The notes: generated from the letters alone by a model not told the origin. A DNA stretch of 64,000 bases from Gemmatimonadota bacterium (GCA_039584255.1 JBDGYE010000005.1:1869-65868), one strand, 5' to 3'; counted from the first letter of the stretch, positions 11,238 through 63,272 are shown. Numbers and translations are program-made.

Positions 11238-11269
11238 GCATCTCGATGCTGAGGGAGTCTGTCCCGGGC

Positions 11270-19518: not shown

Positions 19519-19636
19519 GTCGAACGACAGAAACACGGCCGCCTTTCGGAGTGTATGGAAGGGGCCGCTAGAGATGACGGAAGATGATGGACGGACGATC
19601 GACCAGCCTCGAGCGCCCGATCCGAGGGAGGATGGA

Positions 19637-31656: not shown

Positions 31657-31718
31657 GGTCTGCCGCCTCCTCACCAGAGCCTCGCCGGCGGCACGGGAGC
31701 GCCGCTGGCCGGTGCCCG

Positions 31719-42633: not shown

Positions 42634-43833
42634 TCAGCCTGCGGTCGAAGGCTCCGCCGGCGCCGACTCCTCGGAGGCCGACCACGGAGGGAGCACTTTC
42701 ACGAGCGCCCACAGGATCAAGAAGGGCAGGAGCATGAGCGCCGCAGCCATCAGCAGGCCCTCGAACCCGAACAGCTCCAGTCGGTAGAGCGTCAAACCTC
42801 GCAAGCTCTTCGAGAACAGCTGGCCGCCGATGACGACATTCCACCGGATGCTGAAGATGCCTATCTGCACGAGGATCGCGCTGCCCAGGTAGATCAGTCG
42901 TCGAACCTCGGGCGGCACGCGGTCCGACGCCTTCCTTCTCAGGGCAGGCGAAGTGATCCACAAAGCGACGAGCGGAACCAGCGTTCCGATTACGATCTGG
43001 AGTACGATCAGGCTGATGAACAGCCGACTCTCGATCATCTGCGAGAGGATCTCGATCGACTCCTCCGACTCGTAGAGACGGTGAATGAAGTCCAGCATCT
43101 CCAACGAGAAGTCGACCACCATGGCGTAGAACAGGAAGGACGCGAGCTTGTCCGCGCACTTCATGTCGACGGCCTTCCCCCGGAGAAGGGTCGACAGCAG
43201 GTAGAGTATCAGGACGAGGGCGATGCCGGATACGATCGCGGAGAACAGGAACACCACCGGCATGAGGACGCTGCTCCACCACGGGTTCGCCTTCACCGAG
43301 CCGAAGATGAAGCCGACATACCCGTGCAGCAGAAACGCCGACGGGATGCCGATGATCGTGATCCAGCGGCCGGCGGAGTCGTCGAAGCGGAGGGAGTCCT
43401 CCGAGAGGTCAGTCGCCCCAAGCGTCAGTAAGTAGTGAAGCCACTTCTTCGGCCCGCGCTCGCCGCGCGCCCACAGCACGAGGTCCTTCCGGTACTCGAA
43501 CCAGATCTCGAGAAGCAGCACCACCGCCAGGTACCACGCGTAGACGAAGCCGAACATGGCCATCGCCGATTGGCGGTTGGGCGTGAGGAAGATCTCGTAC
43601 GAGCGCTCCGGATGTCCGAGGTGAGCCAACAGCGGGAGCGGTGCCACGAGCAGGAAAGCCAGCGCGGTCAGAAGCGCGAGGCGATACGTCGGCTCGACCT
43701 CCTTGACGTTGAACACCCTCTCCAGCGAGGCAAGGATGAAGGCACCCGCCACGAGCCCTGTGAGGTACGGGTAGAGCACGATGAGAAGGCTCCACCGGAG
43801 CTCGAACTCGTTAGGATAGATGTAGCCCTGCAT
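42634..43833 (-). CDS. NrfD/PsrC family polytopic membrane subunit (ActF-like?)
   Basis: The 399-aa protein has ~8-10 TM helices. NrfD-type pattern: ...YPYLTGLVAGAFIL...HLGHPERSYEIF... Confidence 0.8.
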   Translation of the reverse strand: MQGYIYPNEFELRWSLLIVLYPYLTGLVAGAFILASLERVFNVKEVEPTYRLALLTALAFLLVAPLPLLAHLGHPERSYEIFLTPNRQSAMAMFGFVYAWYLAVVLLLEIWFEYRKDLVLWARGERGPKKWLHYLLTLGATDLSEDSLRFDDSAGRWITIIGIPSAFLLHGYVGFIFGSVKANPWWSSVLMPVVFLFSAIVSGIALVLILYLLSTLLRGKAVDMKCADKLASFLFYAMVVDFSLEMLDFIHRLYESEESIEILSQMIESRLFISLIVLQIVIGTLVPLVALWITSPALRRKASDRVPPEVRRLIYLGSAILVQIGIFSIRWNVVIGGQLFSKSLRGLTLYRLELFGFEGLLMAAALMLLPFLILWALVKVLPPWSASEESAPAEPSTAG

Positions 43834-43836
43834 CGG

Positions 43837-44643
43837 CTAGCTCACCTCTCCGTCCAGATGGGCGTAATAGACCTTGGGCTTGGTGTTCAGGTGCGACTTC
43901 AGGACCTGGATCTCGTTGTGGCGCATGAACCTGGCGAGTGGGGTGGCACGGTGCTCCACTTCGCCGAAGATCCTGGCGGCGGTCGGGCAGACTTCAACGC
44001 AGGCCGGCACGAGGCCCTCTGCCAACCGGTGGTAGCAGAAGGTGCACTTCGCGGCGACGCGTTTCTCGGGATGGAACCACCTGGCTCCGTATGGGCAGGC
44101 CTGGATGCAGTACCCGCAGCCGATGCAGTACTCCTCGTCCACCAGGACCACGCCGTCTTCGGTCGTGAACGTAGCCCCCACCGGGCAGACCTGGACGCAG
44201 GGGGCGTCCTCGCAGTGATTGCAGAGCTTGGGGACGAAGAACGTCCGCAGAATGCCACCTTCGCTCTGCGTCGTCGGGAATCCGTCGATACCTCCGTTGG
44301 GGCTGTCGACCACCACCTCGCCGTCGGTGCGGATCTGGTACCTCTCGACCCACGTATTGAAGTAATACGGTTCGTGGGGGACGTCGTTCTCGGCCTTGCA
44401 GGCGTGGGCACAGCGGCCGCACCCGATGCACTTCGAGATGTCGACACCCATCCCGTAGTAGTGCTCGGATGCGTCGTACCCTTCCTGGATCCCGCCCGCG
44501 CAGAGGTCACCGACGCGGACCACACCCAAAACGATCGGCACGCCGAGACTGGCCTTCAGCGCCTCGCGCACGAATTCCCGGCGGGCTACGGCTTGAGCGT
44601 CCGCATCCGGATCCCGTCGTAGCCGCTCTCGCCCCGCCGCCAT
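43837..44643 (-). CDS. Tat-exported 4Fe-4S ferredoxin-type iron-sulfur subunit (NrfC/PsrB-like)
   Basis: Tat motif ARREFVREALKASLG. Four Cys clusters are present (CIGCGRCAHAC, CNHCEDAPCVQVCP, CIGCGYCIQACP, CTFCYHRL...C). The start at MAAG (44643) overlaps the octahaem stop. Confidence 0.8.
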   Translation of the reverse strand: MAAGRERLRRDPDADAQAVARREFVREALKASLGVPIVLGVVRVGDLCAGGIQEGYDASEHYYGMGVDISKCIGCGRCAHACKAENDVPHEPYYFNTWVERYQIRTDGEVVVDSPNGGIDGFPTTQSEGGILRTFFVPKLCNHCEDAPCVQVCPVGATFTTEDGVVLVDEEYCIGCGYCIQACPYGARWFHPEKRVAAKCTFCYHRLAEGLVPACVEVCPTAARIFGEVEHRATPLARFMRHNEIQVLKSHLNTKPKVYYAHLDGEVS

Positions 44644-45371
44644 CACTCGGTCTCCGGGTAGTGCGGGTAATGACACTGCCAGCACAGGTAGTCATCTCCG
44701 TGTGTCGAGAGACTGATCCTTGGCACGTGCGAGGGACTCGGAGCACCCTCGCCATGGCAAATGCCGCAGAAGCCGCGATCCGTGGGCTTCCCCGGCCTGA
44801 CCGCGCGTGGCGTCACCTTGTGCTCGTCAGGAGTCTCGTGACAGATCTCGCAGGGCAGGGTGGCGTGGTGCGAGACCGTCTTCTGCCGGCCGATCTGTCC
44901 GTGGCAGGCGGTGCACTCGCCGGGGACCACGGGCGGTTCGGGTGCGTGCGGGTCGTGGCAGGACATGCACGGAACGAGAGGATTGTGCGCCACCGGGTCG
45001 ATCTGTGGGAAGCCGGTCGGGCGCGAGGCATCGTAGCCGTGGCAGAGCGGGCAGAAGCCACGCTCCCTGGGGGCAGGTGGCTTCACCTCGCCGGGGGACG
45101 CCACGTGTGTTGCGGCGGGCCCGTGGCACACCTCGCAGGACACCCCGCGGTGGTTTGATGTCTCCCGCTTCTCAGCGATCCGTGTGTGGCACACCCCGCA
45201 TATGTCGCGGCCCGCGTACTTGATCGGGTGCGCGACGATGGAGTCTACGGCAGCCGCCCGGTAGTGACCGGTCTCGCCAAACGTCTCCGGGACCAAAACC
45301 TCCCGCCCGACGACGAACAGGGCCGCCAGCAGGGCGAACGCTACCGCGAGACGCACGACTTGTTGAGGCAT
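44643..45371 (-). CDS. octahaem c-type cytochrome with N-terminal membrane anchor
   Basis: Eight CXXCH motifs (CGVCH, CEVCH, CPLCH, CMSCH, CTACH, CEICH, CGICH, CWQCH) occur in ~240 aa. N-terminal TM VVRLAVAFALLAALFVV. Confidence 0.8.
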   Translation of the reverse strand: MPQQVVRLAVAFALLAALFVVGREVLVPETFGETGHYRAAAVDSIVAHPIKYAGRDICGVCHTRIAEKRETSNHRGVSCEVCHGPAATHVASPGEVKPPAPRERGFCPLCHGYDASRPTGFPQIDPVAHNPLVPCMSCHDPHAPEPPVVPGECTACHGQIGRQKTVSHHATLPCEICHETPDEHKVTPRAVRPGKPTDRGFCGICHGEGAPSPSHVPRISLSTHGDDYLCWQCHYPHYPETE

Positions 45372-45680
45372 GGCTTGGAGTCGGCTCGGAAGCCCTTTTC
45401 CCTTTCGGTGCCGGATCCGTTTCCGCTTCCGCCGCTCTTCGCAGCGCCGGCTCCTGGGGGGCAAGTTCGGTGCCGCATAGCCTGAGCTCGCCCATCAGTT
45501 CGCCCGATGACTCAAATCGCGACCCGACCGCCAGCTCGTAACGGCCACGCGGGGATCAGTTTGGGACACTGCGTCACGGGACGTGGCAGAATGACCGCTC
45601 GCGGGAGGGCTCGAAACGCGCGTGAGCGCCCGCACGGCAACTAGCTGTCGCACTGCGACGGAGCCGAGGTGGATCGCGCC

Positions 45681-46901
45681 TCAGAGACCTTCCCGGGCGG
45701 GGGCGGCCATCTCTCTCAGGTAGGCCGAGAGGTCTAGCATCTCCCGCCCTTCAAAGCGTGGCCAGTCCTCATGCTCCAGCTGCACCAGGCCGTACATGGC
45801 TGGGGCGTGGTTCCACATCGAGGTGGCCAGTCCGAGCGGCGTGAGTATGGCTTGTGACTGCGAAAGATCAGGACCGAGCGACGCCTGCTCACCGCTGGCG
45901 TGGCAGTTGGAGCACCTCTTGCGCACGAAGACGAGCTCGCCGTCCCGCACATCTCCGCCCGTCTCGTAAAAGCGAAGGTAGTACAGAAACGCGATGAGGT
46001 CTGCCATCTCCGCGCCCTCGAACTGCGGAAATGCTATTCCCCGCTGCTCCATGGCGGCCGCCATCTGAAACGAGTGGTTCCACAGCTCGCCTGAGATCTC
46101 CGACACGCTCAGCCGTTCGGTGGCCGTTCCTAGGTCGGGCCCGAAAGATGTGCCGCCTCCGGCGCTTCCATGGCAAGCCTGGCACCCCTTGGAGTGGAAG
46201 AGGCGCCGGCCCAAGTCGGGATCGGGCGGCTGGAGGAAGACGGCCTGGCGCCCGCGCAGGGCTGAAGACTCACGGATGAATGCGTGGATGTCTGCCAGTT
46301 CCCTTTCGACGAATACAGGCATGGGGATGGCCCGTGCGCGCTGTTGTGCGCGCATCGCGGGCCCGTGATTCCACATCCCCTGGGCCAGCGCGATGGGCGC
46401 GATGTAGCGCGCGTAGTCATCGAGCGGTAAGCTGCCACTGCCAGGCGCCTCTCCGATCGAATGGCATGCCGCGCACCGCTTCTCCCGGAACCACCTCTCT
46501 CCCCTCTCGGGATCCCCGGGCTCGTCGAACAGCTTTATGTAGTAGATGTAGCTGATGATGTTCGCGAGCTCGGATTCGGTGAACGTGGGCCATTCGAACC
46601 CCCTGTCCCTAACCGTTTCTATCATCCGGGGCGTGTGGTTCCAAAACAGACCTGCGAGCTGATGAAGGCTCCGCCCTGCACCGACAACCGCGAAGTCTGG
46701 TCCGAGGGTCCCACCGTTGCCCCAGATCGAGTGGCAGCGGATGCAGTCCCGCTCGACGAACAGCTGCCGGCCGGCTATCGGATCGCCCGGGTAGGAAGAA
46801 GCAGGCTGGGCAGACGTCGCTGCCGGCCCGATTAGCCATACCGGGGCGACGGTAGCCACCAGGACCACCGTCCGCGTCAGGACGGAGAGTGAATCACTCA
46901 T
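45681..46901 (-). CDS. c-type cytochrome with four class-I monohaem domains (4 x CXXCH)
   Basis: Signal peptide, then four ~100-aa repeats. Each has G..LF...C..CH...G.GG..GPDL, then ...MWNH/LWNH..M... and ...E..DL.A(F/Y)L (CIRCH, CAACH, CQACH, CSNCH). It is paralogous to 55066..56280. Confidence 0.75.
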   Translation of the reverse strand: MSDSLSVLTRTVVLVATVAPVWLIGPAATSAQPASSYPGDPIAGRQLFVERDCIRCHSIWGNGGTLGPDFAVVGAGRSLHQLAGLFWNHTPRMIETVRDRGFEWPTFTESELANIISYIYYIKLFDEPGDPERGERWFREKRCAACHSIGEAPGSGSLPLDDYARYIAPIALAQGMWNHGPAMRAQQRARAIPMPVFVERELADIHAFIRESSALRGRQAVFLQPPDPDLGRRLFHSKGCQACHGSAGGGTSFGPDLGTATERLSVSEISGELWNHSFQMAAAMEQRGIAFPQFEGAEMADLIAFLYYLRFYETGGDVRDGELVFVRKRCSNCHASGEQASLGPDLSQSQAILTPLGLATSMWNHAPAMYGLVQLEHEDWPRFEGREMLDLSAYLREMAAPAREGL

Positions 46902-48270
46902 CGCCAGCCTCCGCTGCAGCCACCGAAGGGGCGCCGGGCAAGTATCCCGCCACCCGTTCCGCGACCTCCTGCACTGATTCTTCACGTCCCTCCTTCATCT
47001 CCCAGATCGAGACGATCGGGAAAAACTTGGTGGCGACCATGTACAGCAGGATGAAGCCGGAGAACGTTGCGGCCATGATAGACAGCTCAATCCAGGACGG
47101 CGCGTATCGGCCTATCCCCTCGAACTCCCAGCGCGGGTTCACCGAGGTCGGGACGACGATGTTGAACCGCTCAAGCCACATTCCGATGAGAACGGCCACG
47201 CCGGCCACCAGCGTTCCCGCCGGCGTGCGAGTAGACCGCCGCCACATCAGGATCAGCGGAATGAAGAAACAGCCGGCGACCATCGTCCAGAACGGGATGG
47301 CGAAAGGTCCGGCCAGCTTGGCCCAGAGCGCCCTCATCTCGGCGGGCTCACCGCCGTAGAAGGCCGTCAGGTACTCCGCGAAAGTGAAGTAGAACCACAG
47401 CAGGCTGAAGATGAGAAGGAGTCGCCCCATGTAGTCGAAATGGACCGGCTTGAAGTAGTCCTCCAGGTGGTACACGCGCCTCAGCACGACCATGGCGACG
47501 AGCAGGGCGGCGATCCCCGAGTAGATGGCTCCCATCACGAAATAGGGGCCGAAGATGGTGCTGTGCCACATCGGCCGCAGCGTCATGGCGAAGATCCAGC
47601 CGATGATCGTGTGCACGGATACAGCGACCGGGATCACGGCTATCGCCAGAACGCCGATGACTCGCTCGAGACGTCTTCGCTGTTCCGGCGTGTGCTGGTA
47701 ACCTGCGGCCAGCAATCTGTATAGGCGCGGGGCCTTGATGCCCGAGTCGCGGATGATCGCCAGATCCGGCAGCATCGGAACGTACAGGTAGATGGAGCTC
47801 GCGGTGAAATACACGCCTATGCTGACCACGTCCCACAGGAGCGGAGAGAGCCCCTGGGCGTGGAGAATGACGTTCAGCACCCGGTCCGGGCGTCCGAGAT
47901 CAATGATCGGCTGAATCGCTCCGAATCCGAGAACGAGGACAGTGATGAACTCCGCCGAGCGGGTAATCGCCCGGCGCCATTCCGCCTGGCTGATTCTCAA
48001 GATCGCGGAGATGAGAGTACCGGCGTGGCTGATCCCGATGAAGAAGACGAAGCAGATGATATAGATGCCCCAGTACTCGGGCCGGTTGAGTCCCGTGCGG
48101 CCGAGGCCGTATCGGACCTGAAGGTAGTAGGCGAACGCGCCCCACAGAGTGATCGCTCCCAGCACGGCCGCGGCGAGGTAGAACCCGCGCGACGTCTCGA
48201 CCAGAGGTCGAAGGAGTGTCTGTTCATCCGGCGACAGACGAGCGAATCTCTCGGCTACGCCGTGGCGCAT
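46894..48270 (-). CDS. NrfD/PsrC family membrane quinol-interacting subunit (ActC-like)
   Basis: The start is at MRHGVAERF, 1 nt after the FeS gene stop. About 10 TM helices with the NrfD pattern. Confidence 0.8.
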   Translation of the reverse strand: MRHGVAERFARLSPDEQTLLRPLVETSRGFYLAAAVLGAITLWGAFAYYLQVRYGLGRTGLNRPEYWGIYIICFVFFIGISHAGTLISAILRISQAEWRRAITRSAEFITVLVLGFGAIQPIIDLGRPDRVLNVILHAQGLSPLLWDVVSIGVYFTASSIYLYVPMLPDLAIIRDSGIKAPRLYRLLAAGYQHTPEQRRRLERVIGVLAIAVIPVAVSVHTIIGWIFAMTLRPMWHSTIFGPYFVMGAIYSGIAALLVAMVVLRRVYHLEDYFKPVHFDYMGRLLLIFSLLWFYFTFAEYLTAFYGGEPAEMRALWAKLAGPFAIPFWTMVAGCFFIPLILMWRRSTRTPAGTLVAGVAVLIGMWLERFNIVVPTSVNPRWEFEGIGRYAPSWIELSIMAATFSGFILLYMVATKFFPIVSIWEMKEGREESVQEVAERVAGYLPGAPSVAAAEAGDE

Positions 48271-48271
48271 C

Positions 48272-48955
48272 TCATTCCCTCGAAGCCAGATAGTAGACCT
48301 TGGGCTCGGTTCCAAGTTCTTCCATGATGCGCATCGCCCGCGACTCCTCCGCGAGTTGCGCTACGCGGTGCTCCGGATTGTCCAGGTCGCCGAAGACGAT
48401 GGCTTCGGTCGGGCACACTTCGGCGCACGCGGGCTGGTAGTCCTCCTCGCGAAGCGGCCGGCCGTCGGCGCGAGCGGCCTCGCGGGCCTTCTGGAGACGA
48501 TGATGGCAGAAGGTGCACTTCTCGATGACGCCCTTGGGCCGAACGGATACGTCGGGATTGAGATGCCGGCGCTCCGACTCGGCCCACTCCGGTCCGTACC
48601 AGTTGAAATACTTGACCACGTAGGGACAGGCGTTCGCGCAATAGCGGCAGCCGATGCAGCGCGGGTAGATCTGTCCGACGATTCCCTCATCGCTGATGTA
48701 GGTTGCCTCGACCGGACACACCTTGGTGCACGGCGGGTTGTCGCAGTGCATGCAGGGCCGCGGGTAGAACCTCATGGCCGTGTCGGGGAAATCGCCCTCG
48801 ATTTCCGTCACGACCGTCATCCAGCTCATGGCGCGACCGATCTCGGCCTGCCCGGGCGATACCGTGGGAATGTTGTTCTCGCTCTTGCACGCCACTTCGC
48901 AGGCCAAGCAGCCCGTGCAGCGGTCGAGGTCGATCACCATGCCCCATCGCGTCAT
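48272..48955 (-). CDS. 4Fe-4S dicluster iron-sulfur subunit (PsrB/DmsB/ActB2-like)
   Basis: MTRWGMVIDLDRCTGCLACEVACKSEN...CMHCDNPPCTKVCP...CIGCRYCANACP...CTFCHHRL...CAEVCP are four ferredoxin-type Cys clusters. Confidence 0.85.
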   Translation of the reverse strand: MTRWGMVIDLDRCTGCLACEVACKSENNIPTVSPGQAEIGRAMSWMTVVTEIEGDFPDTAMRFYPRPCMHCDNPPCTKVCPVEATYISDEGIVGQIYPRCIGCRYCANACPYVVKYFNWYGPEWAESERRHLNPDVSVRPKGVIEKCTFCHHRLQKAREAARADGRPLREEDYQPACAEVCPTEAIVFGDLDNPEHRVAQLAEESRAMRIMEELGTEPKVYYLASRE

Positions 48956-48968
48956 CGTCGCCAGCCTC

Positions 48969-51332
48969 TCACACCCGTTGGAGGCGCACGAAGGTCGTCG
49001 ACCAGGACTGAACACCCGTCAGGGGGTCGATCGAGCCATCGAGCACGCTGAGCGGGTTTGCGATTTCGCCGTCGGGGTGGCGGAGCCCGTAGGGTGCGCA
49101 AACGTGATCCGGGGGCGCACCCAAGAACAGCTTCAGCCGAGCGCGGTATCTGCCGCGTGACGACTCGACCCAGACCTGGGTGTCGTCCTCCAGACCTAGC
49201 GAGCGGGCCGTAGCCGGGTTCACCTCCACCCACGGATCCCAGTGAACTTCGGGGAACAGGCCGGGCTTTTCGGCGAGCCAACGCTCGAGGGCGAGGCTTC
49301 CGGATGCGAGCGTCGACACGCGGTACGGGACAAGACGCAGCGGGAAGCCATCGGTCGGGGCCACACCCCTGCTTCCCACATCGATGTAGGGCCGCCGCGG
49401 TCTGCCTTGGGCGTCCAGTACGACCGGCAGCCCCGGCGGCATCAGCTGGACGCGGCCATCAGACGTTCGGGCCAGGCGGCCGGGATCTGTGTGATCGTAG
49501 AACAGGTCCGTCCAGCCGCCTCTCTCCGTGAGCGCATCCCAGAACTCATCGAACTCCGTGTGCTGCGGCAGCCACCAGCCGCGCGACTCCATCTGCTCGT
49601 AATGCCTGCTCTCGAAGTCGCTTCTGAATGTCATGCCACGGCGTGCCGCGAACAGCCCTCGGGCGCGCTCTCTGAGCAGCGTTTCCACGCCGTCGTACGG
49701 AAGCGCCTCACGAACACCTCCGCCGAGCGCCCGCGCGATCTCGAGGACGGCATCGATCGTGTGCGTTCCACCCTCGTGCGGCGCAACGAGCGGCTGCGCG
49801 AGACCCCACACGGGATACGGGTAGGACTGTGGTGTGGGGGCGTCCTGCCAGCGCTCGTACGGAAGCAGGTCCGGCAACACGAGGTCTGCGTGCCGCGTGG
49901 TCTCGTCGAGGAAAGGCGAGAAGCTCACCACGTAGTCGATCATCTCCAATGCCTCACGCCAGACGTCAGGCGCGACCGACGAGGCGATCGGATTCGAATA
50001 GTAGAGGAAGAGGACTTCGACCTGTGCCGCGGCGCTTCCGACGATGGCCTCGGCGAATCGGTCGCGCTGGCCACCCGCCCCGAAGGCCGGAAGCGGGCCG
50101 GCCACACGCTCCCGGTCCAATCCGCGGCGCGCGGTATCGTCCAGAACCAGCGGCGCCAGCGGAGCGAGCGGCAGATCGTCCCCGAGCAGCACCCCGCCCG
50201 GCCGGTTGAGGTTGGCCGTGATCACGTTGACGCTGTGCACGGCCATGCCGGCGAGAAGTCCGTTCGGCGCAGCTGTGACGTCGCTCCCACAAATCGCAAC
50301 CGCTGCCGGGCTCTCGGCGTACGTCCTCGCCAGGGAGGTGATTCTCTCCACCGGCACACCGGTGATCGCCGATACCTCTTCTGTGCGGAAATTCCGGCTC
50401 ACGATAGACCGGTAGCCCTCTTGCAGCTGGCCTTCCACGTCCGTGAAGTCCTCGAAGCCGGACACTCGCTCGGCTATGAAGTCGAGTTCGAGCAGCTCGT
50501 CTCGGATCAGCACGTACGCGATCCCGAGTGCTAGGACCGCGTGGGTCCCCGGCCGGACACCCACCCACTCATGTGCTCGCGCCGCCGTCCTTGAGAAGCG
50601 CGTGTCCACCTGAATGAAACGGGAGCGCCGCGTTTCGTCGGATTCCGGATGGGCAAAACCCACGAAGGCCTGAAGGGGCGACCACCACGCCTCGAAGAGG
50701 GGGGCACCGAAGGAGAGCACCAGCTCTGAGTGGCCGAGATCGTAGCTCGGCCGCCGCTCGACCCCGTGCATCAGGGCCATCACCCCGTCGGTTCCGTCGC
50801 GGTAGTCATCGGCTATGTAATTCGGAGAGCCGAAAGCGGTGAGGAATTGGCGCCAGACATCCTCAACGGAGCCAGCACAGTATCCGGCGAGCAGGGCCAG
50901 CGCCTCGGGCCGGTCGGCCGCCCGCAGGCCCTTCAGGCGCTCAGCGATCAGAGCGAGAGCTTCATCGCGAGTCACCTGCCGCCACTGTCCTGAGCCCCGC
51001 GGGCCGTCTCTCACGATGGGTCCCGTGAGCCGCTGCGGATGGTAGAGTACCTGTACTCCCGCGATGCCACGCGGGCAGATACCCCCACGGCTCATCGGGT
51101 GAAGCGGGTTTCCGGCGATGCCTACGAGACGGCCGTCGACCAATCTGCCCCGAATGCCGCAACGCGCCGGGCAGAGCAAGCACGTCGACGCGCGAGCCTC
51201 CTCGAGCCCGGGCTCCCAGCCCTCGTATCCGTCCTGGTCCTGCGGCCACAAGACCTCCGGGACCCCCTGGAACGCCACGGCAGCCGCGGCCGCGCTGGCC
51301 GTCCAGAAGAACTCGCGACGAGTAGGGCTCAT
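48969..51332 (-). CDS. Tat-exported molybdopterin-oxidoreductase-family catalytic/large subunit (PsrA/PhsA/TtrA-like or cofactor-less ActB1-like)
   Basis: GGAGG RBS. The Tat signal is MSPTRREFFWTASAAAAAVAF. N-terminal Cys cluster C-x2-C-x3-C-x27-C (CLLCPARCGIRG...GGICPRG). Total ~787 aa. Confidence 0.8.
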   Translation of the reverse strand: MSPTRREFFWTASAAAAAVAFQGVPEVLWPQDQDGYEGWEPGLEEARASTCLLCPARCGIRGRLVDGRLVGIAGNPLHPMSRGGICPRGIAGVQVLYHPQRLTGPIVRDGPRGSGQWRQVTRDEALALIAERLKGLRAADRPEALALLAGYCAGSVEDVWRQFLTAFGSPNYIADDYRDGTDGVMALMHGVERRPSYDLGHSELVLSFGAPLFEAWWSPLQAFVGFAHPESDETRRSRFIQVDTRFSRTAARAHEWVGVRPGTHAVLALGIAYVLIRDELLELDFIAERVSGFEDFTDVEGQLQEGYRSIVSRNFRTEEVSAITGVPVERITSLARTYAESPAAVAICGSDVTAAPNGLLAGMAVHSVNVITANLNRPGGVLLGDDLPLAPLAPLVLDDTARRGLDRERVAGPLPAFGAGGQRDRFAEAIVGSAAAQVEVLFLYYSNPIASSVAPDVWREALEMIDYVVSFSPFLDETTRHADLVLPDLLPYERWQDAPTPQSYPYPVWGLAQPLVAPHEGGTHTIDAVLEIARALGGGVREALPYDGVETLLRERARGLFAARRGMTFRSDFESRHYEQMESRGWWLPQHTEFDEFWDALTERGGWTDLFYDHTDPGRLARTSDGRVQLMPPGLPVVLDAQGRPRRPYIDVGSRGVAPTDGFPLRLVPYRVSTLASGSLALERWLAEKPGLFPEVHWDPWVEVNPATARSLGLEDDTQVWVESSRGRYRARLKLFLGAPPDHVCAPYGLRHPDGEIANPLSVLDGSIDPLTGVQSWSTTFVRLQRV

Positions 51333-51355
51333 CCGTAACCTCCAGCCTCTATTCT

Positions 51356-51874
51356 CTATCGATGGCAGGCGTTGCAGTCGAGCGTAGCCCCCCGCTCGAG
51401 ATGGCAATCCATGCAGAAATCCATCGTCATCTCCACCAGCGGCCGGTTTGGTGGCCTAGTGGTCTCTGCTATCCTGCCGTGACATTCCTCGCACGGGAGC
51501 TCGGCGATTCCGACGTGCCGGCGGTGCGTGTAGAAGACGTGAGGTTCGAGCCGGAAAAGCTTGTTGAATCTCAGCGGGTCACCCTGGGCGATCAGTTCCG
51601 TGACCCGGGCGGCCTCTGGCGATGTCCCCTGCACGGTCTCGTGGCAGGCCGAACACGTTTCGGCGTCCGGAAGCCCGGCGTGGGCACCGGTGCCCACGTA
51701 AGGGTGGCAGAAGTCGCAGGCCATCTGGAACTCCCCGGCGTGTTTCAAATGGTTGAATTGAACGGGCTGGGGCACACGCGGACCGGGCGCAGCGACCAGG
51801 GATACTACCGACGCGATGACGACAATCGTCACGAAGACCACGACTCTTCGGCGCGAGATGCTGCGTCGCTTCAC
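51356..51874 (-). CDS. pentahaem c-type cytochrome with N-terminal TM anchor (ActA-like)
   Basis: N-terminal TM RRVVVFVTIVVIASVVSLVAA. Five CXXCH motifs (CDFCH, CSACH, CEECH, CMDCH, CNACH) in 172 aa. It is the first gene of the operon. Confidence 0.75.
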   Translation of the reverse strand: MKRRSISRRRVVVFVTIVVIASVVSLVAAPGPRVPQPVQFNHLKHAGEFQMACDFCHPYVGTGAHAGLPDAETCSACHETVQGTSPEAARVTELIAQGDPLRFNKLFRLEPHVFYTHRRHVGIAELPCEECHGRIAETTRPPNRPLVEMTMDFCMDCHLERGATLDCNACHR

Positions 51875-52188
51875 GCCAGCTTCCTTCCTTAACGTCGCCA
51901 GGAGAGACCGGACCGGTGAGCATCATGTCCGGCGTCGCAATGCCTAGGCACAAGCAATGCCGATGCCAGCATGTCCGTTGAATGAACGATTACGATAATA
52001 CCATATCATAAAACACGTTACCATTACAACTGTCGCACTCCATCTCGCCGGGGCCACAACAACGCGTGTCAGATTATGTGCCGTTATGACCCACGTCATC
52101 GCGCATGTGGGAGAGCTGTCCAGCGGGTGTCGGTGGGGTCCAGCTTCCGAGCGGAGTCGGGAACCGGGCTGCAAGCGCGGCCCCGCCG
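51875..52188 (-). promoter_or_regulatory. AT-rich intergenic region, putative promoter/regulatory region of the pentahaem-Mo-FeS-NrfD operon
   Basis: There is a local GC drop (…cgattacgataataccatatcataaaacacgttaccattacaactgtcgcac…). On the coding strand it contains TTGTAA...TATTAT-like hexamers. It shares a 10-mer CTGTCGCACT with the 45640 region. Confidence 0.3.
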
Positions 52189-53286
52189 TCAGACGGTGGG
52201 GCTGGCCGTGTAACCCAGAATAGTGAGCACGATGATATAGACTATGATGCCGACACCTATCCACGTGAACAGGTGGCTTCGCTCGCCACGTGCAGACCCT
52301 CGATCCAGGAAGGGAATGATCAGAAGGAGGAGCCCGGCCAGGGCAAACGCCATCGCGCCCACGACTTCGCCCTCGAACACGAGAATGTGGCTAGGGAGCA
52401 GCTTCAAGGTGTGGAACATGAACATGAAGTACCACTCGGGCTTGATGCCGATCGGAGCGGGCGCGAAAGGATCCGCCTTCGTTCCGAGCTCCGCCGGCAC
52501 GAAGGCCGCGAGCGCGGCAAGCACGCCGAGGGCGGCGAGCCAACCCACGAGGTCTCGGAGGAGGAAGTTGGGAACGAACGGAAGGCTCCGCCTGGTCTCC
52601 CTTTTCTCGGCGACATCTGGCGGAATGCTCATGCCGTGCCGCTGAACCATGAACAGGTGCAAGCCTATGAGAAGGACGGTGATAGAGGGAAGAATCGCAA
52701 CGTGGATCGCGTAGAAACGCGTCAGCGTCGCGCCTGACACATCTTCGCCTCCGCGCAGGAGTTGTTTGGCGAACGACCCCACCAGCGGGAAGACCCCCAC
52801 GATCTCGGTGCCGACTCTCGTGGCGAAGAACGCGAGCTCATTCCACGGCAGAAGGTAGCCCGTGAAGCCGAACGCCAGAGCCAGAACCAGCAGTCCGACA
52901 CCCGACAGCCACGTGATCTCCCGCGGCGGCCGGTAAGCCTTCAGAAGCAGTACGCTGAAGAGATGGATGAATACCGTGAAGATCATCAGGTTCGCCGCCC
53001 AGGAGTGCAGCGAGCGCACCAGCCAGCCGAATTCCACTTCGGCCATCAAGAACTGAACCGACTCGTACGCCTCCTCTGCGCTGGGCCGATAATAGAACAG
53101 AAGCAGCACGCCGGTGACCACCTGCACCAGGAAGAGAAACAGCGTCATTCCTCCCAGGTAATACCAGACGCTGTGCCGGTGGACCGGTACCTCTTTCTTC
53201 CTGGCGAGCTCGGCGAACGGAGCGAAGCCGATGCGATCGTCCAGCCACTTCCAGAGGTCACTCAGCGCCTGCCGGGATCTTCCCAT
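52189..53286 (-). CDS. cytochrome b (cytochrome bc complex, fused b6+subunit IV-type)
   Basis: The start [21 protein letters not shown] overlaps the Rieske stop (ATGA). The motifs ...[26 protein letters not shown]...[24 protein letters not shown]...[13 protein letters not shown] are canonical haem bL/bH His positions. Confidence 0.85.
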
Positions 53287-53288
53287 GC

Positions 53289-53744
53289 TCACGCCCCCCG
53301 GCTCACAACTATCTGATCGCCTCGCACGTTGACTTCGAAGGCATCGAGCGGTCGGGGTGGCGGGCCGGCGACGTTTCGACCGCTGAGGTCGAAGTGGCCG
53401 TTGTGGCAGGCACACCAGATGCGGCTGATGTCGTCGCGGTACTGCACGGTGCACTCGAGGTGAGAGCACACGGCCGAGAAGGCGCGGAGCTCTCCGTCTG
53501 GCGTGCGGACCAAGATTCCGGCCCGGTTGCCGAATCTGAACAGCCGGCCGTTGTTCGGAGCGATTTCCTCCGGCGCGAACGGCAACACGACCGAGCTCGC
53601 CGCCGATTCGGCGCTCGCGGGTGGAATGAGGTACCTGGTCACCGGGTAAAAGATCGCCAGCAGAATCCCCCCCACACCGGTCCCGAGGATCCAGTTGACG
53701 AACCTCCGTCGGGAAGCTCCGCCGGACTGTGAGGCTCCGCTCAT
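53289..53744 (-). CDS. Rieske [2Fe-2S] iron-sulfur subunit
   Basis: Tat-like [11 protein letters not shown] plus a TM. Box I CSHLEC and box [10 protein letters not shown] are present. Confidence 0.85.
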
Positions 53745-53782
53745 CAGTGCTCTCTCCTCCGCGAATCCAGAGGTTCGGGTGC

Positions 53783-55069
53783 TCAGGTCGTGCGACCTGC
53801 GGTGTGCCTTCCCTCGATCTGATGGATCTTCATCACAAGCCCGACTATCAGCACGATGATGACGATCACCGATGCGGCGAGGCCCATCCGACGGACCTGC
53901 AGATCGCGCAGCGCCCGAACGCCGCGCTCGACGCCCTCGGCGGCGATCTCCAGTCCTCCCTCGACTTCCGCACCGACAACGTCGGGGTTGAAGGCGTGAA
54001 CGGCCGCTCTGGCCTTTACGAGACCATCGTGGGCCCCCGTCATCTCGAATTGAGCCTGGCCGACCTCCATGCCGGCGTTCTCCGCTCGCGACAGGACCCA
54101 TTCCGCCGAATCCACAACGGTGCGCAACGAGTCGATCATGGCACGCATTGCCGCGGCGGCCTGACCGCCGGGATCATCCGCGGAATGGCATTGACTGCAT
54201 ACCGCATCGTCGGCCAGGCCGAGCATCGCGTCGCCGGCTTCGCCGATGTCGTGATTCCGGTGGCAGGTGGCGCACCCGGGAGTGCCGAGCAGGGTGAAGA
54301 CTTCTGCGTGGCGGGACTCTACGAAGTGGCCTGCCATCACGGCGTGACACTGCCCGCAGACATTGCCCACCCAAGAGATCCCGGGTGGGGCCGCGCCGTG
54401 ATTGCCGTGACAGTCGTTACAGGTAGGGGCCGAGAGGTCGCCCTCCTCGGACAGCATCCGCCAGTGCAGGCTGCGGTCGTACTTGTCCACCTGGTCCGAA
54501 GGCAGGCCGTACGGCTCCATGCGTTCCGGGTCTGCGTGACACTTCCCGCAAGTCTCCGTAACCCGTAGGGGGTGGACGCTCGAATTCGGGTCCGTCGGCC
54601 GCAGAATCTCGTGAGCGGGGTGACAGCTGATACATGTCGCAACGTTCGGGTCTCCGAGCTCCGTCAATCGGCGACCATGGGTGGAGGTCGCGTATTCCGC
54701 CAACTGGTCCACGCGGAGAGAGGGATTGTACCGCCTCATGAACTCAGCGTCCGCGTGGCACCGACCGCAAACCTCGAGGACCTGCCTGTGATCCGGAACG
54801 CCGATGTACCCCTTCATCGGGTCCATGGCCTCCAGTCCAGCCAACGTGGCGTCTCCCCCGTGGCACGCGATACAGCCGAATCCCTTGGCGGCGTGCACGT
54901 CCCGGGGGTAGCTCTCGGCCGGAGCGGCGAGACGCCCGCCGAGGGCTGCATGGCAGGTCAGGCACGTGCCGGTGGGCGGCTGGGCTTCCTGGCCCGGCGA
55001 TGCCGTTGGCCAGCCGGCAGCCGCGACGGCGATGGTCAGCAGACCGGCCCCTCTGTTGAGCCTCCTCAT
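53783..55069 (-). CDS. nonahaem c-type cytochrome with C-terminal membrane anchor
   Basis: Signal peptide. Nine CXXCH motifs (CLTCH, CIACH, CGRCH, CISCH, CGKCH, CNDCH, CGQCH, CATCH, CSQCH). C-terminal [23 protein letters not shown] overlap with the upstream cytochrome gene. Confidence 0.8.
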
Positions 55070-56280
55070 CGCGGCACCGCCAGAGATTCCAGAAACGCCC
55101 CTAGATCTGCCATCTCGCTTGGCGTAAAAGTAGGCCAGACTTCCCCGATGCCCGACTCGTACATAGCCGGGGCATGGTTCCAGAGCGAGGCAGCCATTCC
55201 GCCCGGAGAGTCGACGCCTCTCACCGCGGCCAGGTCCGGAGCGTTCGTCCCCCCGCGGCCGTTCAACGAATGACAGGCGAGGCAGCCCTTATCCCTCAAC
55301 AGGAGTCGTCCGCGGTCCGGATCGCCGGAATCCGCGAAGTACTGGACAGAGTGGAGGTATGCCACGAGATCCGCCATCTGTACGGCCGACAGCTTGGGGA
55401 CCGACAGCCCTCTGGCCCTCAACGCGCGGCGCATCGCCGGAGCTTTGTTAAGCATAGCCGCAGCGAACTCGGTCATGCTCCGCCTGCCCCGGCCCCCTGC
55501 CAGATCGGGACCGAGCCGTCCTCCTCGGCCCAGGATGCTGTGGCAATCGATGCAACCCTTCTCCACGACCAGCCGCCTTCCCTCGTCCGCCCGCCCGGGC
55601 AATACGTGCAGAGGGCCTTGTGGCCAATCCCCCGCGGCGGATTCCAGGTAAGAGATCAGGTCGATGAGCTCGCTGCCCGAGACAGACGACCGCTCGATGC
55701 CGAGAGCGTTCATCGCTTCGTCCATGGCCGGCCCGTGGTTCCACATCGCCGCCGCGACCTGGATCGGCGATCCGAAGTAGCTCACGAACTCGAGGTTCGG
55801 ACCGATTACGCCGCCCACGCCGCCGACCTGATGGCACATCACGCAGCGCTTTTCCGTGAACAGCTCCCGGCCGTGCGCGGCATCGCCGGGAGGATCGAAG
55901 TAGTCGAGCGTGAACAGGAAGGCGATGAGATCGCTCGTCTCCTGCGCCGTCATCTGTGGCCGGTCGATGCCGAGGCTCCCCATGCGTTCGACCATCCGTG
56001 GAACGTGGTTCCACATGTGCGCGGCCAGCTCATAGAACGTCTTCCTCTCGGAAGAGGCTCCCAGATCCGGGCCCTCGTCTCCGCCGAGCCCGCGGACGGC
56101 GTGGCACTTCACGCAACCCTTTTCCCCGAAGACCTGCGCTCCGGCGAAGGCGTTCTGAGCCGGTCCCGCCGGCGTCTGCGCAAGGCTCGCCGTAGTGGCT
56201 CCGAACAGCGCAAGTACGGCAGCCAGGGGGACGATGATGGACCGGTGCGGATGCCCCATGCGGATACTCTCGTCAGTCAT
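55066..56280 (-). CDS. c-type cytochrome with four class-I monohaem domains (paralog of 45681..46901)
   Basis: CVKCH, CVMCH, CIDCH, CLACH, each followed by the G.GG..GP(D/N)L and MWNH/LWNH motifs. Signal peptide present. Confidence 0.75.
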   Translation of the reverse strand: MTDESIRMGHPHRSIIVPLAAVLALFGATTASLAQTPAGPAQNAFAGAQVFGEKGCVKCHAVRGLGGDEGPDLGASSERKTFYELAAHMWNHVPRMVERMGSLGIDRPQMTAQETSDLIAFLFTLDYFDPPGDAAHGRELFTEKRCVMCHQVGGVGGVIGPNLEFVSYFGSPIQVAAAMWNHGPAMDEAMNALGIERSSVSGSELIDLISYLESAAGDWPQGPLHVLPGRADEGRRLVVEKGCIDCHSILGRGGRLGPDLAGGRGRRSMTEFAAAMLNKAPAMRRALRARGLSVPKLSAVQMADLVAYLHSVQYFADSGDPDRGRLLLRDKGCLACHSLNGRGGTNAPDLAAVRGVDSPGGMAASLWNHAPAMYESGIGEVWPTFTPSEMADLGAFLESLAVPR

Positions 56281-56528: not shown

Positions 56529-56924
56529 ATGAGGAGAGCGCTGAGTTTGATGCTGGGCCTGACCCTTGTCTTCGGTTTCGGCTTGCAGGCCGCGGCCGCA
56601 CAGGAGTCTGGCAAGCCGGCTGCCGTGACCCACGATCTCGAGGGCAAGGACAACTGCCTGATGTGCCACAAGACCGGGGTCATGGAAGCTCCGGTCGCGC
56701 CCGAGAGCCATGCCGACCGCACGAGCGACGTGTGCCTGCTATGCCACGGCGAGGGCTCGCCGATGCAGACAGCGGATGCGGGAGCGATCCCCCACGATCT
56801 CGAGGGCAAGGACAACTGCCTGATGTGCCACAAGACCGGGGTCATGGAGGCGACGAAGATTTCGGAGAATCACGGCGAGGTGGCGAACGAGCAGTGTCAG
56901 CTCTGCCATACGCCGGCCGGCTGA
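56529..56924 (+). CDS. small periplasmic tetrahaem c-type cytochrome (tandem dihaem modules)
   Basis: The signal peptide is MRRALSLMLGLTLVFGFGLQAAAAQE. Four CXXCH motifs (CLMCH, CLLCH, CLMCH, CQLCH) occur in a ~105-aa mature protein. Confidence 0.75.
   Translation: MRRALSLMLGLTLVFGFGLQAAAAQESGKPAAVTHDLEGKDNCLMCHKTGVMEAPVAPESHADRTSDVCLLCHGEGSPMQTADAGAIPHDLEGKDNCLMCHKTGVMEATKISENHGEVANEQCQLCHTPAG
56631..56849 (+). repeat. 162-bp-period tandem duplication inside the tetrahaem gene; first ~57 bp of each unit identical except 1 nt
   Basis: cacgatctcgagggcaaggacaactgcctgatgtgccacaagaccggggtcatgga(a/g)g occurs at 56631-56687 and 56793-56849 (HDLEGKDNCLMCHKTGVMEA twice). The rest of each unit has diverged (ESHADRTSDVCLLCHGEG vs ENHGEVANEQCQLCHTPAG). 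Confidence 0.85.
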
Positions 56925-57075
56925 GCCGGACCCTCCGACTCCTGGAGGCAAGCGCTTCCGGAGTCGCAAGTAGGGAGTAGATAGACTCATAAACTCAGAT
57001 CGCCGCGGCGCCTGACCGACGCCGCGGCGATCTTCTTTGTTGTCCGCAGGGCTTTGAGCCCCCTGCCCGATACCT

Positions 57076-59942: not shown

Positions 59943-60087
59943 GCATGCTCCGGGGAGTGTGGGTTCAACCACCGTCGAGTCCCGCTATTCGGCTGCCTCA
60001 ACTTGATGTACGCTTCCCAATGCATCAACCCCGCCGGGGGACGGCTCAGTGACCGGTCCCCGGGGAGCCACCTGATATGGCCGCGGC

Positions 60088-62922: not shown

Positions 62923-63272
62923 TCGATCTCTCGGTCCGTTTCTCATCCGCACGACCGGTTGGCAGGGCAGGTCGTGCCTAATCCATGTAGCTGCAAGAAG
63001 CGGACTCGGTCGAGCGGAGGTGGCCGCTGGGCATTGTGCCGCTTCGGGACGGGGAATCTGCTGGTTGGCCGATCGGGTCGCGCGCCCTTTCCGCACAACG
63101 GCGCGCGGGTCGCGGGGTCAATGTGTCACATCATGTTCGTGAAAGACCGCGCAGGAGTGTAGTGAGAACAGCCGCAAGGCTGTAACGCCATGCTGCAGAT
63201 CCGGTTGTGGCCCTCAGAATGGGCCCGGGGCCCAACCGGGCGCCCGGCGGCCCCCCGTCCATCGAATGATCC

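Follow-up and report, generated by a model that had tools for sequence, protein, structure and literature searches.

A 64-kb window of Gemmatimonadota DNA (the whole stretch that was analysed) carries two minus-strand gene units for quinone-linked electron transfer, unit 1 at 45681–51874 and unit 2 at 42634–45371. Unit 1 encodes ActA-, ActB1-, ActB2- and ActC-like subunits of alternative complex III (ACIII) together with a four-domain class-I cytochrome c, and unit 2 encodes an octahaem cytochrome c, a Tat-exported PsrB-like FeS protein and a ~9-TM NrfD protein. Both units are real, conserved variants of known quinone-linked electron-transfer complexes and not a new machine. Their products (modules 1 and 2) probably act as two independent quinone-interacting modules, module 1 being a minimal quinol oxidiser of the ACIII/Qrc clade and module 2 a quinol:multihaem-cytochrome oxidoreductase.

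Gene content and separability of the two units

The initial annotation described a single respiratory super-operon of nine co-directional genes. The genes that it described are all present and all lie on the minus strand, but their number is eight (Table 1). Junctions are 23, 13, 1 and 6 nt within unit 1, and a 1-nt overlap and a 3-nt gap within unit 2, with 309 nt between the units. GC3 is 0.77–0.88 in each of the eight genes and all have orthologues with identical haem counts in other genomes, so the gene set is not due to chance. The start of the octahaem cytochrome was fixed at ATG 45371 because its orthologues begin MPQQV. The 787-aa start of the large (ActB1-like) subunit is backed by about 118 homologues of at least 740 aa; the JGI gene call of 668 aa is too short.

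Table 1. Features of the two units and of the neighbouring island
Feature	Position	Strand	Length	Remarks
ActA-like membrane-anchored pentahaem cytochrome c	51356..51874	-	172 aa	5 CxxCH, N-terminal TM
ActB1/QrcB-like large subunit	48969..51332	-	787 aa	Tat signal, FS0 [4Fe-4S] motif, Mo-bisPGD fold, without conserved Mo ligand
ActB2/QrcC-like four-cluster FeS subunit	48272..48955	-	227 aa	16 Cys, without signal peptide
ActC-like 10-TM NrfD-family quinone-interacting subunit	46894..48270	-	458 aa	PDB matches to ActC
Periplasmic cytochrome c, four class-I monohaem domains	45681..46901	-	~406 aa from ATG 46901	Sec-type signal
Octahaem cytochrome c	44643..45371	-	242 aa	N-terminal TM/signal anchor, 8 CxxCH
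Tat-exported four-cluster FeS protein, PsrB/TtrB/NrfC type	43837..44643	-	268 aa	RREF motif
NrfD/PsrC-family membrane subunit	42634..43833	-	399 aa	~9 TM, Pfam NrfD
Putative sigma54-type -24/-12 box TGGCATCGGCATTGC	51954..51968	-		~80 nt upstream of ActA-like start
Second putative sigma54-like box CGGCACCGAACTTGC	45461..45475	-		~90 nt upstream of octahaem start
Upstream operon: four-domain cytochrome c (404 aa), 9-haem cytochrome with C-terminal TM, Rieske, cytochrome b	52189..56280	-		
Tetrahaem c (+ strand), 16-haem c, predicted outer-membrane beta-barrel, 19-haem CbcL-like cytochrome fused to b-type membrane domain	56529..63096			

The single super-operon did not hold up, as the units are separable in other genomes and each has its own sigma54-type box in the window. 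The five-gene core of unit 1 (ActA, large subunit, FeS subunit, ActC and four-domain cytochrome) is kept in related loci L002, L003, L005, L009 and L011, the last being the most diverged of the five-gene operons listed (31% identity); the sequences of L004 and L010 stop before the cytochrome gene. The operon is common in Gemmatimonadota, with at least 120 protein clusters at 60–69% identity, and the large subunit also has named relatives in several other phyla. The unit 2 trio is absent within 10 kb of unit 1 in L002–L005, and absent near unit 1 in L009 and L011. It is conserved by itself, usually beside a Rieske/cytochrome b operon, and in L006–L008 it adjoins the same four-gene operon that lies upstream of unit 1 in the window.

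The two sigma54-type boxes are the sole matches with at most one mismatch in the 64-kb window. TGGCATCGGCATTGC aligns upstream of the unit 1 operon in L002–L005, and a histidine kinase and a sigma54 activator adjoin that operon in L002 and L009. The assignment of CGGCACCGAACTTGC is weaker because no such box is conserved ahead of the trio's orthologues in L006/L008. From these motifs, the units may be under sigma54 control.

Both units belong to a ~21-kb island with 69 haem-c motifs. The neighbourhood at its far end, which is conserved in L012, includes a predicted outer-membrane beta-barrel (58470–59942; AF2 pLDDT 85.8) whose top PDB folds are all outer-membrane barrels, MtrB included.

Subunits of unit 1 and unit 2

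The ActA–ActB1–ActB2–ActC order proposed for the first four genes was confirmed, and for three of the four the best solved relatives are ACIII subunits. [quoted passage not shown] Gene order A-B-C and Tat export of B are as in ACIII, as is a pentahaem ActA with an N-terminal TM, here at residues 11–29; this cytochrome has its best PDB matches in ActA of 6lod, 8k9e, 6btm and 6f0k (3e-19 to 1e-15). The ActB2-like subunit has the full 16 Cys of its four ferredoxin motifs (B2 of ACIII carries one [3Fe-4S] and three [4Fe-4S] clusters), and its top PDB match is the C-terminal half of ActB (6f0k_B, 6e-62), followed by ArrB (5e-42) and PsrB (3e-34). The ActC-like subunit, with ~10 hydrophobic segments, matches ActC of all four ACIII structures, from 1.6e-61 (6f0k_C) to 4e-55; ActF matches in the PDB are weak, and PsrC is not among its PDB matches.

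When compared with the signature residues of R. marinus ActC (list taken from PMC8076601 and PMC5928083), the ActC-like subunit keeps 20 of 23, the changes being H139D, D253I and Y323T. Both proton half-channels, R395/E394 and the hydrophobic quinol pocket are kept as in ACIII, but two of the four polar quinol-site residues are replaced (H139D, D253I/V). Conservation of the half-channel residues suggests charge or proton translocation by module 1, despite the missing ActD and ActF. Because of H139D, D253I/V and the missing ActD, quinone chemistry and energy coupling may differ from those of ACIII.

The initial annotation also had ActD and ActE replaced by a tetra-domain cytochrome, which is borne out. 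No ORF for ActD, a 2-TM subunit in ACIII, was found in the 6-nt gap between ActC and the cytochrome gene, the JGI gene calls for the region include none, ActD is likewise missing from L002–L005, L009 and L011, and a four-haem protein stands in the place of ActE. This protein consists of ~90-aa class-I repeats with four CxxCH (motif CxxCH...GPDL...WNHxPxM), matches the domain models Pfam Cytochrom_C and TIGR02603, and has a Sec signal without a lipobox Cys; no ActE match was found for it in the PDB. Its gene follows ActC in every related operon and is often tandem-duplicated in relatives. His/Met class-I haems are usually high-potential. Unit 1 contains no ActF, which in ACIII is a second 10-TM NrfD-like subunit lacking a quinol site. 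Its ActB1 and ActB2 genes, 13 nt apart, remain split in all related loci.

The large subunit has the Tat motif RREFF, the Cys motif CX2CX3CX27C and the Pfam domains Molybdop_Fe4S4, Molybdopterin and Molydop_binding. The invariant Cys motif predicts an extra [4Fe-4S] cluster, FS0: its Cys never vary among 118 close homologues, and 126–135 of ~140 distant representatives (>90%) keep them. Retention of all Mo ligands, which would have made this a known type of reductase, was not found. The Mo-ligand Cys is missing, with ArrA Cys193 aligned to D179 and PsrA Cys173 to G180, and neither Cys nor Sec stands at the ligand position. Across ~140 family representatives, the Mo-ligand loop has no conserved Cys, Asp or Ser and varies in sequence and length. 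Because this loop is hypervariable across the wider family, the large subunit is most likely cofactor-less, that is, without Mo/W-bisPGD.

In unit 2, the octahaem cytochrome gave only weak c7/c3-type matches, and its orthologues at 66–69% identity retain eight haems. The FeS protein matches PDB PsrB (3.6e-50), and its NCBIfam scores are 197 bits for TtrB (cut-off 416), 175 for DsrO (200) and 157 for NrfC (378). The 399-aa NrfD protein, which is 80–85% identical across Gemmatimonadota, scores 130 bits on Pfam NrfD and 49 on NCBIfam NrfD (cut-off 348), with no curated equivalog. The proposed likeness of this protein to ActF failed, since it has ~9 TM and no PDB sequence match, ActF included. Nor does the second module resemble Qrc as had been suggested: its FeS partner is PsrB/TtrB-like, and it is unit 1 that scores best on Qrc models. 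Module 2 shares with NrfBCD and the nine-haem complex NhcABCD a periplasmic or anchored multihaem c, a Tat-exported four-cluster FeS protein and a cofactor-less NrfD-family subunit; Geobacter CbcSTU-type modules have the same architecture. It differs from NhcABCD in having eight haems rather than nine and no NhcD, the shared architecture not implying orthology.

Proposed electron flow and alternatives

By analogy with the solved ACIII structures, the ActC-like subunit would oxidise menaquinol on its periplasmic side. The ActB2-like subunit, a separate polypeptide, would take up the electrons at its proximal FeS cluster and hand them on to the five haems of the ActA-like cytochrome, from which they would leave through the co-encoded four-domain periplasmic cytochrome in the place of ActE. 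The onward acceptor would be high-potential and could be a terminal oxidase, an N-oxide reductase or one of the other island cytochromes; the window contains no terminal oxidase or reductase. The ActB1-like subunit would be Tat-exported, presumably carrying the signal-less FeS subunit along, and with FS0 kept and most likely no Mo/W-bisPGD it would serve mainly as a scaffold. As a counterpoint to a scaffold role, FS0 and the clade-invariant Asp179 are both kept, and ActB1 may have a redox role. In module 2, electrons would run from the ~9-TM NrfD through the PsrB-like four-cluster protein to the membrane-anchored octahaem cytochrome.

The direction of flow through module 1 could be the reverse, with periplasmic or extracellular donors (e.g. 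Fe(II) or an electrode) reducing menaquinone via the island cytochromes in the manner of QrcABCD, the menaquinone reductase of sulfate reducers. The four separate subunits in identical order are those of QrcABCD, and this A, B, C, D-only composition is a counterpoint to module 1 as a quinol oxidiser, as Qrc runs the opposite way. QrcA (82 bits, cut-off 180), QrcB (274/440) and QrcC (313/400) are the best curated models for the first three subunits, in a comparison that is one-sided, there being no ACIII subunit model among the NCBIfam/Pfam matches. In addition, a split actB1 with CX2CX3CX27C typifies the ACIII-like clusters of iron oxidisers (PMC4643136), the island has its predicted barrel beside a 16-haem cytochrome as well as a CbcL-like protein, and polar quinol-site residues are altered. 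However, every Qrc model stays under its cut-off and the membrane subunit is ActC-like, scoring 212 bits as ActC and only 32 on QrcD (cut-off 570). Moreover, module 1 has as its dedicated partner a class-I cytochrome of four domains with Met motifs, unlike the low-potential cytochrome c3 (TpIc3) of Qrc, and no multihaem or barrel genes lie near the operon in L002–L005. We therefore regard reverse flow as unlikely. A cofactor-less Mo-pterin-like B is expected in both unit 1 and Qrc, but unit 1 keeps FS0 whereas QrcB is described as lacking a redox cofactor, a comparison made by description only (PMC13059093, PMC6303296), and the host is a member of Gemmatimonadota with no sulfate-reduction genes in the window.

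Other alternatives concern the large subunit. It is unlikely that, with FS0 under strong selection, the otherwise 'elusive' FeS2–4 wire of ACIII runs on through FS0 to a second working redox site in the ActB1-like subunit. Such a complex would be a living intermediate between a Psr-type molybdoenzyme and ACIII, where electrons could leave or enter at two points, and it would also be the unannotated complex III of Gemmatimonadota. It is very unlikely that the large subunit functions as an Asp-ligated Mo/W-bisPGD enzyme acting on a chalcogen, arsenate or other substrate, module 1 then being a Psr/Arr-type reductase with an acquired pentahaem branch. In PsrABC, PhsABC and ArrAB terms, the family has neither a Mo-ligand Cys or Sec nor any conserved ligand, and the loop is unconserved over ~140 representatives of the same operon type, even though Asp179, aligned to the Mo ligand Cys193 of ArrA, is invariant in the 118 Gemmatimonadota homologues. 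The full four-domain fold is nearest PsrA and ArrA, the Tat signal is present, and CPRG is kept along with FS0, but the active-site RGRY motif of ArrA is not conserved. The best of the curated scores, 224 bits for PhsA, falls far under its cut-off of 694, as do ArrA (144/1600), TtrA (70/1750) and the DmsA family (121/778). Furthermore, the FeS, haem and membrane partners are of ACIII type, no maturation chaperone gene was found in any of the loci examined, and neither a Moco riboswitch nor any other Rfam match was found. AF2 confidence is <50 in loops 212–234 and 247–250, beside the strands that normally hold the dinucleotides, which is weak evidence against the cofactor.

The remaining alternatives touch module 2. 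All eight genes are adjacent and co-directional in the window, the second NrfD is ActF-sized, and in several Gemmatimonadota genomes the trio has the ACIII-like and bc operons as neighbours, as would suit one supercomplex in which this NrfD substitutes for ActF and the octahaem cytochrome lengthens the haem wire. This is highly improbable, given the 309-nt gap with its own sigma54-like box, the trio's own Tat-exported FeS partner, its absence near module 1 in the six loci named above, the varying order and orientation where all are present, and an NrfD with ~9 rather than 10 TM and no sequence match to ActF. That module 2 is an NrfBCD-type donor to cytochrome c nitrite reductase is hardly credible. 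The FeS and membrane subunits of module 2 have NrfC and NrfD among their top models but miss both cut-offs by far, no curated cut-off being reached by the membrane subunit and the FeS protein being nearest PsrB/TtrB; the cytochrome has eight haems and not five, and an equivalent of NrfB is lacking. The initial annotation had allowed for an nrfA nearby, and none was seen: no multihaem reading frame of the 64-kb window has the CxxCK of NrfA, and no NrfA-like gene lies beside the trio in L006–L008.

Relation to known complexes and significance

Two independent modules, the reading that we prefer, leave unit 1 as a variant of ACIII with several departures. ACIII has a single ActB polypeptide where unit 1 has two genes, but a split ActB is a documented ACIII variant (PMC4643136, PMC12342949). 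Unit 1 B1 keeps the FS0 motif, unlike the B1 of R. marinus, which is without a prosthetic group (PMC5928083). ActD, ActF and ActG are absent, ActD being the proposed coupling element of R. marinus ACIII (PMC5928083), a soluble four-domain cytochrome c replaces the monohaem lipoprotein ActE, and the quinol site differs by the H139D and D253I changes.

It is true that this is not a textbook arrangement, as initially annotated, but each departure is already found in genome papers (PMC4643136, PMC12342949, PMC9386147, PMC5317091). Iron oxidisers have ACIII-like clusters of the form actAB1B2CDEF (PMC4643136), and an ACIII-like complex with split ActB1/B2 has been proposed in their iron-oxidation electron chain. 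Nitrospirales clusters are actAB1B2CDE without F/G (PMC12342949), and MBNT15 cluster 4 combines ActABCD with a four-haem ActE-like protein and multihaem/FeS/NrfD operons (PMC9386147). There is thus precedent in the literature for the ActB1/B2 split, for the loss of ActF/G, for ActE-like proteins with four haems and for multihaem/FeS/NrfD modules. Likened by description, unit 1 and its surroundings share with these split-actB clusters collectively the B1/B2 split, an identical B1 CX2CX3CX27C, ActF/G loss, a four-haem ActE substitute and adjacent multihaem/FeS/NrfD modules, but unit 1 also lacks ActD. Neither Gemmatimonadota nor the exact five-gene core is treated in PMC4643136, PMC12342949 or PMC9386147.

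In a genomic survey of the Gemmatimonadota, 23% of genomes had cytochrome b and <10% had ACIII, and the authors suspected complex III modules that had escaped annotation (PMC9426454). Unit 1 may be this 'missing' complex III of many Gemmatimonadota. In public records its subunits are named only 'molybdopterin-dependent oxidoreductase' or 'polysulfide reductase NrfD', and such names could lead metabolic reconstructions to infer sulfur or selenium respiration instead of a complex III equivalent. As a natural minimal ACIII that retains FS0 but has neither ActD (proposed to be the coupling element) nor ActF (which provides the second proton path), unit 1 would be a useful test case for energy conservation in ACIII and Qrc and for the purpose of the extra FeS wire.

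Gene content and gene calls

The region 42634-51874 holds eight co-directional minus-strand genes with a strong GC3 bias, five in module 1 and three in module 2. The initial annotation had counted nine; the shared orientation was borne out and every gene feature it listed is present, but the ninth gene was a miscount. Close homologues of the window proteins are named Gemmatimonadota.

The gene calls were compared with those of JGI for the metagenome contig matching the window (3300041077, Ga0452210_001940). JGI calls the large subunit at 668 aa, so that the Tat signal and the motif of FS0, its [4Fe-4S] site, are missing; the four-haem cytochrome, at 314 aa, lacks haem 1, and the pentahaem protein, at 130 aa, lacks the TM anchor. 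Homologues support lengths of 787 aa, ~406 aa and 172 aa (with the TM helix), respectively. With these three shortened calls, automatic annotation would fail to recognise what the operon is.

Features of the window, with positions in related loci where named
Feature	Position	Strand	Remarks
Pentahaem c	51356-51874	-	N-terminal TM helix
Large subunit, 787 aa	48969-51332	-	Tat signal; CX2CX3CX27C; three molybdopterin-oxidoreductase Pfam domains
FeS protein of module 1		-	16 Cys
NrfD-family protein of module 1 (ActC-like)	46894-48270	-	Family assignment
Four-haem cytochrome	45681-46901	-	Four CxxCH motifs
Module 2	42634-45371	-	Beyond 309-nt gap; octahaem c with TM anchor, Tat FeS protein, 399-aa NrfD
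Sigma54-type -24/-12 box, module 1	51954-51968	-	Pattern match
Sigma54-type -24/-12 box, module 2	45461-45475	-	Pattern match
Rieske/cytochrome b(6)-type operon	52189-56280		L006 11818-15941; L008 11320-15376
Tetrahaem c, 131 aa	56529-56924	+	Signal peptide; sole plus-strand gene inside the cytochrome island
16-haem cytochrome	57076-58566
Predicted large outer-membrane beta-barrel, 490 aa	58470-59942		Unannotated Gemmatimonadota-wide family
19-haem cytochrome fused to FdnI-like b-type membrane domain	60088-63096		CbcL architecture
Fused CopC-CopD copper-resistance-type protein, 541 aa	12967-14592
1096-aa protein	19574-22864		PD40 beta-propeller repeats and Omp85-type barrel domain
Bacterial aeRF1-like protein (baeRF family 3/7)	23296-24486		Recurs near cytochrome cluster in L012
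RtcB RNA ligase	30220-31956		Other strand, ~6 kb from baeRF gene

Affiliation of module 1 and probable loss of the Mo site

The module 1 proteins were searched against PDB sequences. The ActC-like membrane protein matched ActC of all four solved alternative complex III (ACIII) complexes (1.6e-61 to 4e-55), ActF weakly and PsrC not at all. The FeS protein matched the C-terminal (B2) half of ActB (6e-62) better than ArrB (5e-42) or PsrB (3e-34), and the pentahaem protein matched ActA (3e-19). The first four genes had been thought to resemble Psr, Phs and Ttr reductases as much as ACIII, a reading that was rejected. The top curated NCBIfam models for module 1 were QrcA, QrcB and QrcC of the menaquinone reductase Qrc, all under cut-off, and the QrcD model gave only 32 bits; no ACIII model is present among the NCBIfam and Pfam matches, so that this HMM comparison of Qrc with ACIII is one-sided. 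Because of the PDB matches of three subunits and the Qrc scores, we place module 1, by sequence comparison, in the 'ACIII-Qrc clade' of Kato et al. (PMC4643136): its subunit list is that of Qrc, and its membrane and electron-transfer core is of the ACIII type.

Synteny was followed in related loci from other genomes and metagenome contigs (L002-L012). A scan of genome contigs with one protein gave only four close loci, and representative proteins and the contigs encoding them supplied the wider context. The five-gene core (ActA-like, large subunit, FeS, ActC-like and four-domain cytochrome c) is present in Gemmatimonadota L002, L003 and L005, and in two metagenome contigs with large subunits 45% (L009) and 31% (L011) identical; in L004 and L010 the core is partial because the contigs end. 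Where relatives of the large subunit are named, they belong to Acidobacteriota, Aminicenantes, Zixibacteria, Nitrospirota and Ignavibacteria.

The ActC positions that are >95% conserved according to Calisto and Pereira (PMC8076601) were mapped onto the ActC-like subunit. Twenty of the 23 signature residues are identical, including the entire N-side half-channel, E394/R395, S164 and D169. S245 is retained too, as is the hydrophobic quinol pocket seen in the R. marinus structure. The other three positions are changed (H139D, D253I/V and Y323T/S), two of which, H139 and D253, are proposed polar quinol ligands. The same substitutions occur in the orthologues of L002, L009 and even L011, with its distant large subunit, and look like the signature of a subfamily.

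The cytochrome encoded next to ActC is built of four class-I domains of ~90 aa with the common motif CxxCH...GPDL...WNHxPxM; it carries a Sec-type signal but lacks a lipobox. In related genomes ActC is always followed by one or two genes of this kind, and by position and type the protein takes the place of ActE. A paralogue at 35% identity is the first gene of the upstream Rieske/cytochrome b operon. Should the four domains have His/Met class-I chemistry, this would point to a high-potential exit and so favour quinol oxidation.

Unlike R. marinus ACIII, module 1 is without ActF and without ActD, whose Glu122 has been proposed to couple quinol chemistry with proton paths (PMC5928083). All departures of module 1 from canonical ACIII have been described in earlier papers: an actB1/actB2 split, with CX2CX3CX27C (PMC4643136), actAB1B2CDE lacking F/G (PMC12342949), duplicated ActE with F/G lacking (PMC5317091), and a four-haem ActE-like protein beside multihaem/FeS/NrfD operons (PMC9386147). 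The exact five-gene core without ActD, and its prevalence in Gemmatimonadota, were not found described in the literature. In a survey of Gemmatimonadota, <10% of the genomes had ACIII and 23% had cytochrome b; unrecognised modules were suspected (PMC9426454).

Retention of the Mo ligands, which the initial annotation had left to be checked, was examined by aligning the 787-aa subunit to ArrA and PsrA. The ligand Cys is not retained: ArrA Cys193 aligns with Asp179 and PsrA Cys173 with Gly180, and Cys is absent nearby. Across 118 close homologues there is no variation at the four cysteines of FS0, the twin arginines or Asp179. An exhaustive search with the large subunit found 912 representatives under 1e-30, of which the 150 best (mostly 30-45% identity, ~770-830 aa) were taken further; the ~140 of these with at least 650 aa were aligned. 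FS0 is retained in 126-135 of them. In real enzymes the ligand sits on the loop from GSPN to (M/T)QG. Across the ~140 this loop differs in both sequence and length, and no Cys, Asp or Ser in it is conserved. The two distant members with a fully readable operon (L009 and L011) have the same operon type. The whole window, scanned against Rfam at gathering thresholds, gave no Moco riboswitch or match of any other kind, and no maturation chaperone gene accompanies the operon. With the ligand loop unconserved and both riboswitch and chaperone gene lacking, the family as a whole has most likely lost the Mo site and kept FS0. The Mo site is likewise lost in QrcB and ActB (PMC6303296, PMC5928083). Within the loop, Asp179, Tyr177 and His189 are invariant or almost so in the 118 Gemmatimonadota homologues; the same loop is hypervariable in the wider family.

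Module 2 and the separation of the modules

Both modules had been read as one super-operon. However, the octahaem/FeS/NrfD trio that makes up module 2 is missing within 10 kb of module 1 in L002-L005. The trio itself is conserved, its NrfD being 80-85% identical across the phylum, and in L006-L008 it adjoins, in varying order and orientation, a Rieske/cytochrome b operon that also encodes a four-domain c and a 9-haem c. In L006 and L007 the ACIII-like operon lies near the trio on the opposite strand. On this separability in other genomes a single super-operon was rejected; the three quinone modules tend to co-localise, yet are separate units. In L006, the NrfD gene and the cytochrome b gene are each followed by a gene for one of two paralogous 146-aa proteins (11225-11665 and 16062-16502, in that order), which have an N-terminal CPGCG motif and no Pfam match; the window showed no counterpart.

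The FeS protein of module 2 is PsrB/TtrB/NrfC-like (PsrB, 3.6e-50 in the PDB sequence search), and its cytochrome has eight haems and only generic similarity to c7/c3. The membrane subunit has a Pfam NrfD domain and ~9 TM helices but reached no curated equivalog. It had been likened to ActF by size, an identity rejected on the TM count and the lack of any PDB sequence match. In architecture module 2 corresponds to NrfBCD or NhcABC(D) (PMC8076601). The initial annotation had allowed for an NrfBCD donor system with nrfA nearby; the NrfA motif CxxCK is absent from the multihaem reading frames of the window, and no NrfA-like genes were found among the neighbours of the trio in L006-L008. NrfABCD was rejected for want of an nrfA. 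Similar multihaem/FeS/NrfD modules in MBNT15 and Melioribacter have been proposed as quinol:cytochrome reductases (PMC9386147).

In the 64-kb window the sigma54 pattern TGGCAC-N5-TTGC, with one mismatch allowed, matched only twice, in each case 80-90 nt ahead of a module's first gene; ~2.9 matches were expected in the whole window and, by estimate, ~0.007 in the two 150-nt zones. The module 1 box aligns in four other genomes (L002-L005), and a histidine kinase and a sigma54-dependent (NtrC-type) activator adjoin the operon in L002 and L009. The module 2 box is not conserved upstream of the trio in L006 or L008, and the window genes that were scanned include no sigma54 activator. Searches for sigma70 promoters and intrinsic terminators (42-57 kb) gave nothing over shuffled background, and the FNR/CRP box search gave no match.

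The cytochrome island

The multihaem reading frames of the window all lie within 44.6-63.1 kb and carry 69 CxxCH motifs in total. In the Rieske/cytochrome b operon, cytochrome c1 is replaced by a four-domain class-I c together with a 9-haem cytochrome that has a TM at its C-terminus. This four-gene operon is conserved and adjoins the trio in other Gemmatimonadota; its cytochrome b scored 222 bits with the model of ExtP (selenite/tellurite operon), under the cut-off of 290. A 132-aa equivalent of the tetrahaem c occupies the same relative position in L012, where the neighbourhood 57076-63096 is also conserved. The 490-aa protein of this neighbourhood is predicted to form a barrel of ~24-26 strands (pLDDT 85.8), and all of its best-ranking PDB folds are outer-membrane barrels, MtrB among them. 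The 57076-63096 cluster looks like a porin-cytochrome conduit. Module 1 is found also without this cluster (L002-L005). Because of the conduit-like cluster, the electrons of the island's quinone modules may partly reach, or come from, extracellular acceptors.
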